Origin: Candidatus Aenigmatarchaeota archaeon
GTDB taxonomy: Archaea; Aenigmatarchaeota; Aenigmatarchaeia; GW2011-AR5
NCBI GenBank assembly: GCA_016187335.1
Contig: JACPJW010000001.1
Coordinates: forward strand, 160,001 to 224,000
DNA length: 64,000 nucleotides
Direction: 5' to 3'
In this document: piece by piece, positions 51,219 through 51,542 of the stretch
Position numbering within the stretch: position 1 is the first letter of the stretch
Layout: each line of letters starts with the position of its first letter
The notes under the pieces: model-generated
Told to the model about the DNA's origin: nothing
The model's database searches: none
The model's input: only the letters and a program-made list of their open reading frames with translations
Position numbers and translations under genes: made by a program

Positions 51219-51542
51219 ATTGAGTGCAAGAAGAAGGTGAATTAGCGACTTTCACGAAGTGCTTTAATGAAATAAATACCTAATGTTAATCCGGATACAA
51301 GCTTCGCTGCACCGGTCCAAATAAAAGAAGGGTTACCGGTTGCTCGATAAGCCATAATATCGGTAGCTCCGTCTGCTAAAAGACTTACGCTACCGACTGG
51401 AATTCCTATAGCAGTAACGTATGGATTCATTTCCTGTGAAATTCTTTCAATTCTGTCTGGAGGTTTTTGAAATTCCATATGTCACTACTAATAGATGAGA
51501 ATTTAAAGCCTATCATTCGCTTTTTGGAGCTTCTTCCCGCAT
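51219..51542 (-). other. 23S BHB intron I (324 nt, H52 loop region) carrying a small ORF
   Basis: 12-bp inner helix TGCGGGAAGAAG/CTTCTTCTTGCA; splicing restores GTAGGGCGAGAATCCCTAC. Confidence 0.88.
51242..51478 (-). CDS. intron-encoded 78-aa predicted membrane protein
   Basis: Intact ORF inside intron I, two hydrophobic segments, CTTTAAAT about 30 nt upstream of the ATG. Confidence 0.65.
   Translation of the reverse strand: MEFQKPPDRIERISQEMNPYVTAIGIPVGSVSLLADGATDIMAYRATGNPSFIWTGAAKLVSGLTLGIYFIKALRESR

Follow-up and report, generated by a model that had tools for sequence, protein, structure and literature searches.

The 64,000-nucleotide (nt) stretch of DNA analyzed here, referred to as the window, comprises bases 160001-224000 of contig 2 of an archaeal groundwater genome assigned to the Aenigmatarchaeota (DPANN), which is 1.01 Mb in size, in two contigs, with a GC content of 47% and approximately 91% completeness. 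The 23S ribosomal RNA (rRNA) gene in this window contains a 324-nt insert at positions 51219-51542. The favored reading, considered rather likely, is that this insert represents a bulge-helix-bulge (BHB) intron, seated at a peripheral 23S hairpin, which carries a self-contained small gene and is part of an intron family with only the ends in common. In the usual view, the cargo of an archaeal rRNA intron is a homing endonuclease, or else it has none. The 78-amino acid (aa) protein predicted from the open reading frame (ORF) of this intron does not look like a mobility enzyme. The finding gains interest because the intron belongs to a family with hypervariable orphan cargo, and the recognition, from the sequences, of this conserved splice-and-layout family is the new result.

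The Rfam model LSU_rRNA_archaea aligns to positions 48275-54038 of the window, on the minus strand. The gene spans 5,764 nt compared with the 2,987 positions of the model, so insertions make up roughly half of it. Those seen in the cmscan alignment measure approximately 39, 924, 166, 325, 45, 220, 44 and 47 nt, in addition to others. The alignment puts the 325-nt insertion at 51218-51542, where the model has a hairpin loop close to its position 1415. Folding of the junctions according to BHB geometry sets the intron at 51542..51219 on the minus strand, a length of 324 nt, and thereby returns exactly the rRNA intron of the initial annotation. When the exons are joined and aligned to E. coli rrlH, the site falls at E. 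coli position 1287/1288, within the loop of a hairpin, GCGGGUGAAAAGCCCGC, that opens domain III; we take this hairpin to be helix 47.

The junction has two 3-nt bulges on opposite strands, a 4-position helix between them and further helices on either side, as expected of a BHB motif. In the canonical BHB the cut follows the second nucleotide of the bulge. The spliced loop predicted in this manner is CGAGAAU, in agreement with the Rfam consensus, and relatives without the intron have 7-nt loops such as UGAGAAU and UGAAAAA. The cut position inside the bulge fits this 7-nt loop, and removal of the intron would restore the conserved rRNA structure. Neither a group I intron nor any other known RNA family was found in the insert, the two Rfam matches being at chance level (E>0.5) and neither of them group I. 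A permissive Rfam scan of the intron gave no credible C/D box RNA, and a search of the intron DNA against relatives returned nothing above chance. It is very likely that the insert is a canonical archaeal BHB intron. Its features, in the direction of rRNA transcription, are as follows:

51549..51554, minus strand: 5′ exon strand of the helix 47-like stem, GUAGGG, pairing with CCCUAC at 51212-51217
51545..51548, minus strand: 5′ strand of the central 4-position BHB helix, CGAG, pairing with CUCA at 51221-51224 through a C.A mismatch and three pairs
51542..51544, minus strand: 5′ 3-nt bulge, AAA, with the predicted 5′ splice site between 51543 and 51542
51219..51542, minus strand: BHB intron, 324 nt, 39-40% GC compared with 47% for the genome
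51530..51541, minus strand: purine-rich 5′ strand of the 12-bp helix closing the intron, UGCGGGAAGAAG, which forms the 5′ end conserved across the intron family
51501..51507, minus strand: TATA-like box TTTAAAT, in which TTTAAA begins at -29 from the ATG
51482..51489, minus strand: octamer AGTAGTGA, within which GTGA at 51485-51482 (-7) weakly matches, over 4 nt, the Shine–Dalgarno sequence of the genome, GGTGAT
51242..51478, minus strand: orphan ORF P0001, 78 aa and TAA, with three predicted helices and a hairpin formed by residues 28-47 and 50-77
51225..51236, minus strand: pyrimidine-rich 3′ strand of the 12-bp helix, CUUCUUCUUGCA, beginning 5 nt past the stop codon
51221..51224, minus strand: 3′ strand of the central BHB helix, CUCA, from the junction table
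51218..51220, minus strand: 3′ 3-nt bulge, AUU, with the predicted 3′ splice site between 51219 and 51218
51212..51217, minus strand: 3′ exon strand of the stem, CCCUAC, pairing with GUAGGG

The intron family was found by searching relatives with the flanking exons and by scanning genome and metagenome contigs for the pattern of the 5′ junction. The first metagenome pattern was loose, and among its matches only L071, L095, L122 and L143 are real members of the family. An intron occupies exactly the same position in approximately 8 of the 142 genomes of the phylum that hold the rRNA region, and in three metagenome contigs. The members, of which G178 represents another family within the same class, are listed below:

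G000 (this genome): intron of 324 nt, ORF of 78 aa
G010: intron of 351 nt, ORF of 95 aa
G004: intron of 367 nt, ORF of 89 aa
G056: intron of 292 nt, ORF of 76 aa
G038: intron of 352 nt, ORF of 65 aa and an overlapping one of 36 aa
G012: intron of 313 nt, ORF of 78 aa
L071: intron of 326 nt, ORF of 86 aa
L095: intron of 311 nt, ORF of 81 aa
G178: intron of 393 nt, ORF of 108 aa
L143: intron of 83 nt, no ORF
G058: intron of 39 nt, no ORF

The 3-4-3 BHB is kept in all 11 members. Its central helix has undergone compensatory changes (CGAG/CUCA, UGAC/GUCA, CGAA/UUCG and UGAG/CUCA), with the versions of the relatives fully paired, and the exon stem covaries (GUAGGG, GUCGGG, GUUGGG and GCUGGG) while forming all 6 pairs in every one of the 11. 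Between members only the first 16-28 and the last 18-26 nt of the intron can be aligned; the identity of the interiors is that of shuffled sequence. The shared ends comprise the BHB, a closing helix of 12 bp with one purine and one pyrimidine strand and, in several members, a TATA-like box close to the 5′ terminus. Each of the nine long introns (292-393 nt) contains an ORF that starts with ATG on the sense strand and encodes 65-108 aa, a length with p <= 0.016 in every case when compared with shuffled sequences. The ORF starts at intron nucleotide 43-50 in seven of the long members, 65 in G000 and 78 in G004. Eight of the nine have the stop codon 19-27 nt before the end of the intron, directly ahead of the pyrimidine-rich helix strand. 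The cargos of the family together have an AT bias at third codon positions, with a z-score of 6.8 for the difference in GC content between first and third positions (GC1-GC3).

A TATA-like element (TTTAAA, TTTAAG, AATAAA, ATAAAT, TTAAGA or TTTTGA) is found at -28 to -31 from every ORF in the family. In G056, L071, L095 and the ORF-less L143 the TATA-like box (GGAATAAA...) lies within the conserved 5′ end, and in the layout of the family the spacer between box and ATG is approximately 23 nt. The ATG of G000 and that of G004 are situated further into the intron, each with a separate TATA-like box at -29. Because these boxes follow the shifted ATG, the spacing that is kept is that from TATA to ATG and not that from splice site to ATG. 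Such a constraint matters only for a promoter in DNA, which argues for an own promoter and a leaderless mRNA. Most members of the family have no sequence resembling a Shine–Dalgarno upstream of the ORF.

The shorter and disrupted members may illustrate how the cargo is lost. In G038 a second ORF piece of 36 aa, in another frame, has its end at the place usual in the family, ahead of the 3′ helix (L038:1643-1929). As this frame terminates where a cargo gene of the family should, the G038 gene is probably frameshifted, and its split cargo is likely to be either a frameshifted, decaying gene or an assembly error. G038 and G058 belong to one genus and have flanks that are 92% identical, and the 352-nt intron of the former compares with a mini-intron of 39 nt in the latter. 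L143, with its 83 nt, has the conserved 5′ box, then ATG-TAA at nucleotides 40-45, followed directly by the 3′ helix strand; the ATG-TAA looks like the scar of a deleted ORF. By analogy, these three forms look like stages of the cycle of gain, decay and loss that has been described for endonuclease introns. Two members also have an extra insertion without an ORF, a few bases downstream of the family intron: approximately 190 nt in G012 (L033 ~1990-2180) and approximately 31 nt in G056 (L021 ~2013-2043).

The 78-aa ORF, which the initial annotation had reported as intact, runs unbroken from ATG to TAA (51478..51242) on the rRNA-sense strand and occupies 73% of the intron. In shuffles of the intron that preserve dinucleotides, a sense-strand ATG ORF of such length occurs in 0.5% of cases. 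With both strands considered, an ORF at least as long is found in 0.7-0.8% of shuffles when only ATG starts are allowed, and in 1.9% when ATG, GTG or TTG are. The GC contents of the three codon positions are 49/47/24%, and the GC1-GC3 difference of 0.26 is above that of all 150 random ORFs of the same composition and similar length (mean 0.01, standard deviation 0.08). Real coding sequence is favored because three independent signs concur: length, codon-position periodicity and the geometry of the promoter. On this sequence evidence the ORF is, with good probability, a real protein-coding gene.

The promoter geometry can be compared with that of the host genome, in which TATA-like hexamers ahead of ORFs of at least 150 aa peak at -29 (64 at this position, over a background of approximately 5 per position). 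Such a hexamer occurs at -31..-27 in 184 of 925 of these ORFs (~20%). In an archaeal leaderless TATA promoter, the transcript begins at the ATG and the box is centered approximately 26 nt ahead of it; from its position in the sequence, the peak at -29 is the signature of leaderless genes. The second class of starts in the host relies on a Shine–Dalgarno sequence, GGTGAT, whose GTGA lies at -8 and which is the complement of the 16S rRNA 3′ end, GATCACCTCC. The intron ORF has the TATA box expected of an archaeal leaderless gene. The TTTAAAT box that had been noticed upstream of it is located at 51507-51501, and its TTTAAA starts exactly at -29, the modal position of the genome; the probability of a TATA-like hexamer at -31..-27 by chance in the shuffled intron is 0.02. 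The two LAGLIDADG_3 ORFs located inside two other large introns of the same 23S gene (52389-53177 and 48883-49722; 262 and 279 aa) likewise have a TATA-like hexamer approximately 29 nt ahead of the ATG. The TATA-to-ATG spacing suggests that the DNA is transcribed separately into a leaderless mRNA, and expression from an own promoter is the route to which the sequence gives reasonable probability.

The passenger ORF with a promoter-like signal thus stands as initially annotated, free of nuclease motifs; the AGTAGTGA half site said to be shared with other orphan genes does not. The octamer is present at 51489-51482, and it is under-represented in the genome, with 16 copies compared with approximately 31 expected from base composition. 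It was rejected as a regulatory site, being not enriched and having as its GTGA the core of the Shine–Dalgarno GGTGAT. That GTGA lies at -7, one base off the genomic Shine–Dalgarno peak. Other copies of AGTAGTGA in the window are found at 1726, 2310 and 29813. Two of these three lie approximately 20-30 nt downstream of GCTTTAAAT or GCTTTATAT boxes, just ahead of ATGs, and look like ordinary arrangements of a promoter with a Shine–Dalgarno variant, with no special motif.

Among the nine cargo proteins, no pair has significant similarity by BLASTP or by shuffled Smith-Waterman alignment, the best z-score over 36 pairs being 2.8. The cargos of the relatives have no credible match in Pfam, PHROGs, PADLOC or NCBIfam; for the G178 cargo this result covers PADLOC and NCBIfam, and for the G038 pieces Pfam and PHROGs. 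For eight ORF pieces from seven relatives, the sole Pfam row is TSGA13 at E=0.28, a chance match, and 23S_rRNA_IVP does not appear. No credible paralogue of any cargo was found in the host genome. The G178 cargo has a predicted alpha/beta fold (beta-beta-alpha-beta-beta-beta-beta; predicted local distance difference test score (pLDDT) 72.8), as opposed to the helical hairpin of G000, and Foldseek against the PDB gives it only a weak PAS-like topology (E = 0.06, template modeling score 0.4). Some cargos are acidic and look soluble. Those of G056 and G012 have one N-terminal hydrophobic segment each and a TYPG motif in common. Replacement of the interiors is favored over their divergence, because the cargo lengths and modeled folds differ.

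The 78-aa protein itself has no match at E<=1 in Pfam, NCBIfam, PHROG or PADLOC. No homologue was found in six-frame translations of 60 relatives, and scans of genomes, metagenomes and viral contigs returned only the protein itself. It is also alone in a word-indexed collection of 5.8 billion clusters, in which all three cargos searched (this one and those of 108 and 81 aa) are singletons. An exhaustive phmmer search of 1.84 billion representatives gave 7 matches, all of them giant proteins of 1,200-3,500 aa. Four of the 7 were scanned in Pfam or compared pairwise, and proved to be repeat proteins (SprB, Ig_7 and a 53-residue repeat). As the repeats are copies of one another, each worth 25-31 bits, the summation of such non-independent scores is inflated, and these matches were rejected as false positives. 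An SprB or Ig-like adhesin repeat has no significant single-repeat match to the protein, and Pfam SprB does not match the ORF. The homolog search for free-standing copies that had been suggested at the outset thus recovered no credible copy in any database searched.

The model of the protein made with AlphaFold2 from the single sequence has a pLDDT of 82.6 and consists of three helices, with a confident hairpin of residues 28-47 and 50-77. Foldseek found no match to this model in the PDB with E below 2, and matches in the ESM Atlas were confined to generic helical hairpins, the best feature score (0.84) lying within the chance range. Both of the hydrophobic segments initially reported are present and of moderate strength: the maximum Kyte-Doolittle mean over 19 residues is 1.37, below the 1.6 usual for a membrane span, and charged residues lie inside both segments, including two Asp in the first. 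From the sequence, a membrane location is possible. By analogy with phage “morons”, it could be speculated that the product is a lineage-specific accessory protein, possibly membrane-associated, and this is put forward as a doubtful proposal; no particular role deserves more credence than that. No defense-system, family or fold match was found to support the suggested role as a toxin or host-interaction peptide.

Several other explanations were considered for the insert and its ORF. The insert could stay in the mature 23S rRNA as an expansion of the hairpin tip, or could be excised without ligation in the manner of a bacterial intervening sequence. Such an insert would suit a peripheral hairpin loop, which tolerates insertions, but the compensatory changes that maintain the canonical 3-4-3 BHB in 11 members make this quite improbable. 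The mini-introns retain the BHB and little else, and the host genome encodes both EndA (PF01974, 97 bits) and RtcB (PF01139, 528 bits). A somewhat less improbable alternative, although still an unlikely one, is a non-coding intron whose frame is open by chance and never translated. An orphan without homologues and with codon usage unlike that of the host would be expected from it; the length on the sense strand (p = 0.005), a GC1-GC3 periodicity beyond that of all 150 null ORFs and a TATA-like box at the modal -29 of the genome would not. The same sense-strand ORF layout is moreover found in nine of nine long introns, and the two introns without an ORF have shrunk to 39 and 83 nt. To the same low degree, the message of a real ORF may be the intron RNA after its excision, in linear or circular form, or the pre-rRNA, and not a transcript of its own. 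BHB introns are ligated into circles, the rRNA promoter would provide abundant RNA, and the GTGA at -7 is a weak Shine–Dalgarno match. However, this GTGA misses the genomic peak at -8/-9 and pairs over only 4 nt. Internal initiation on a circle would require a Shine–Dalgarno sequence, which most ORFs of the family lack, and the conserved TATA-to-ATG spacing is relevant only to a DNA promoter giving leaderless mRNA.

The nature of the cargo gives rise to two further alternatives. Archaeal rRNA introns usually carry homing endonucleases, two of these are present in the same 23S gene, and the stretch SLLADGAT in the ORF loosely resembles a LAGLIDADG motif. The ORF could therefore be proposed to be what decay has left of the gene for a LAGLIDADG or other homing endonuclease, the case that the initial annotation had itself set against its own reading. 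This is very improbable: there is no nuclease family at E<=1, which bears out the reported lack of LAGLIDADG, HNH and GIY motifs, and the protein is unlike both resident LAGLIDADG proteins (BLASTP E>1). The model is all-helical, lacking both the alpha-beta-beta-alpha-beta-beta-alpha arrangement and, more generally, a mixed alpha/beta nuclease core. Between promoter and 3′ helix the ORF is unbroken, and the intron has no other frame above 39 aa, which leaves no frameshifted nuclease relic. The small proteins could instead be a new mobility or maintenance factor of the intron, such as a minimal nuclease, an RNA chaperone or an addiction toxin. The cargos do occupy the usual place of mobility genes, and the long introns always retain an ORF. 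But endonucleases at one homing site are normally related, whereas these cargos cannot be aligned and have differing predicted folds, helical hairpin versus alpha/beta, with no match to a catalytic motif or fold; such a factor has little probability, though more than a decayed nuclease.

A number of observations weigh against the favored reading of a BHB intron with a self-contained gene and interchangeable cargo. The 78-aa ORF is an orphan, without a homologue in the databases searched from which conservation or the ratio of non-synonymous to synonymous substitution (dN/dS) could be computed. Host genes have a median GC3 of 59% and a mean host-codon score of 0.28, compared with 24% and -0.10 for the ORF, a score at approximately the 2nd-3rd percentile of host genes. 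The whole intron is AT-richer than the genome, which fits a foreign or separately evolving element and not non-coding sequence, because non-coding sequence would have no periodicity. The host rRNA flanks are only ~81-84% identical between members, so the cargos may instead have arisen by fast divergence of one ancestral gene. Lastly, the 3′ helix strand of the 324-nt intron has no run of five T, which makes termination there doubtful, and several relatives do have five T in this strand. A terminator role for the pyrimidine-rich strand at 51225..51236 is only inferred.

It is tentatively proposed, at somewhat less than even probability, that the BHB intron site is a heritable slot for gene expression, in which interchangeable or very fast-evolving small protein genes unrelated to mobility would be carried within a conserved splice-and-promoter frame. 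The rRNA gene would then serve as a safe harbor, and perhaps as the birthplace of lineage-specific proteins, in genome-reduced symbiotic archaea. In the favored reading, EndA would cut both bulges in the pre-rRNA, and RtcB would ligate the exons and circularize the excised intron. Independently transcribed from the internal promoter by TBP/TFB and RNA polymerase, with initiation at the ATG, a leaderless mRNA would be translated; it would end in or past the pyrimidine-rich 3′ strand, and its product would be a small accessory protein. The conserved intron ends would persist through the requirement for splicing, and the conserved exons could supply homology for exchange between lineages. The interior would turn over by replacement or very fast divergence, and decay of the gene would be followed by deletion of the interior down to a minimal BHB hairpin, the mini-intron of 39-83 nt.

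The closest known elements are the archaeal BHB rRNA introns with LAGLIDADG genes, such as that of I-DmoI in the 23S gene of Desulfurococcus mobilis and those of Pyrobaculum, Aeropyrum and the Thermoproteales. They have in common with this family a BHB in an rRNA gene, an ORF on the sense strand, hosts with EndA and RtcB, and the occurrence of ORF-bearing, remnant and mini-hairpin forms at one site. The cargo of the present family differs in being non-nuclease, without family, and mutually unrelated at the same site. The published scheme divides archaeal rRNA introns into endonuclease-bearing ones, remnants that lack an ORF, and mini-hairpins (PMC4496867), and leaves no place for intact non-nuclease ORFs. 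No report of such ORFs in BHB introns was found in the open-access literature.

The nearest non-nuclease precedent, by analogy, is bacterial: S23p (Pfam 23S_rRNA_IVP), which is encoded in 23S intervening sequences of Coxiella, Leptospira, Xanthomonas and bacteria of the candidate phyla radiation (CPR) (PMC11270868). In both cases a small non-nuclease ORF is located in a stem-bounded insert at the tip of a 23S hairpin. S23p is, however, one conserved bacterial family in inserts that are cut by RNase III without ligation, as opposed to diverse orphans in an archaeal BHB intron, and the 23S_rRNA_IVP family does not match the 78-aa ORF. Hairpin-flanked rRNA cassettes of CPR bacteria (Tsurumaki et al. 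2024) resemble the family in their conserved stem ends, the small gene inside, their location at helix tips, and their ultra-small groundwater symbiont hosts. Unlike the intron family, they are bacterial, have no BHB and mostly encode GIY-YIG or LAGLIDADG nucleases. Phage morons, which have their own promoter and terminator in a conserved framework, are similarly compact units of promoter, ORF and end, AT-richer than their surroundings and variable between similar elements. Their carrier is a prophage and not an rRNA intron, and for the present family expression and benefit are hypothetical.

If the proposal is correct, the intact and differing non-nuclease genes of the long members would show that rRNA introns can host ordinary cargo. 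They would enlarge the accessory or selfish genes of DPANN archaea by a new class, and provide a natural case in which the origin and turnover of orphan genes could be followed inside an essential, conserved gene. For annotation, they serve as a warning that ORFs within rRNA genes are not always spurious.

Two further features of the rRNA genes were observed. The insertion adjacent to the intron in the 23S gene, at 51727-51892 (166 nt), consists of AT-rich and purine-rich palindromic hairpins without an ORF, and is of another intron type than the 324-nt intron. The 16S gene lies outside the window (C2:239678-242953, loci L012 and L013) and is unlinked from the 23S gene. The Rfam model matches it as two pieces approximately 1.2 kb apart, so a large intron is probably present in the 16S gene as well.

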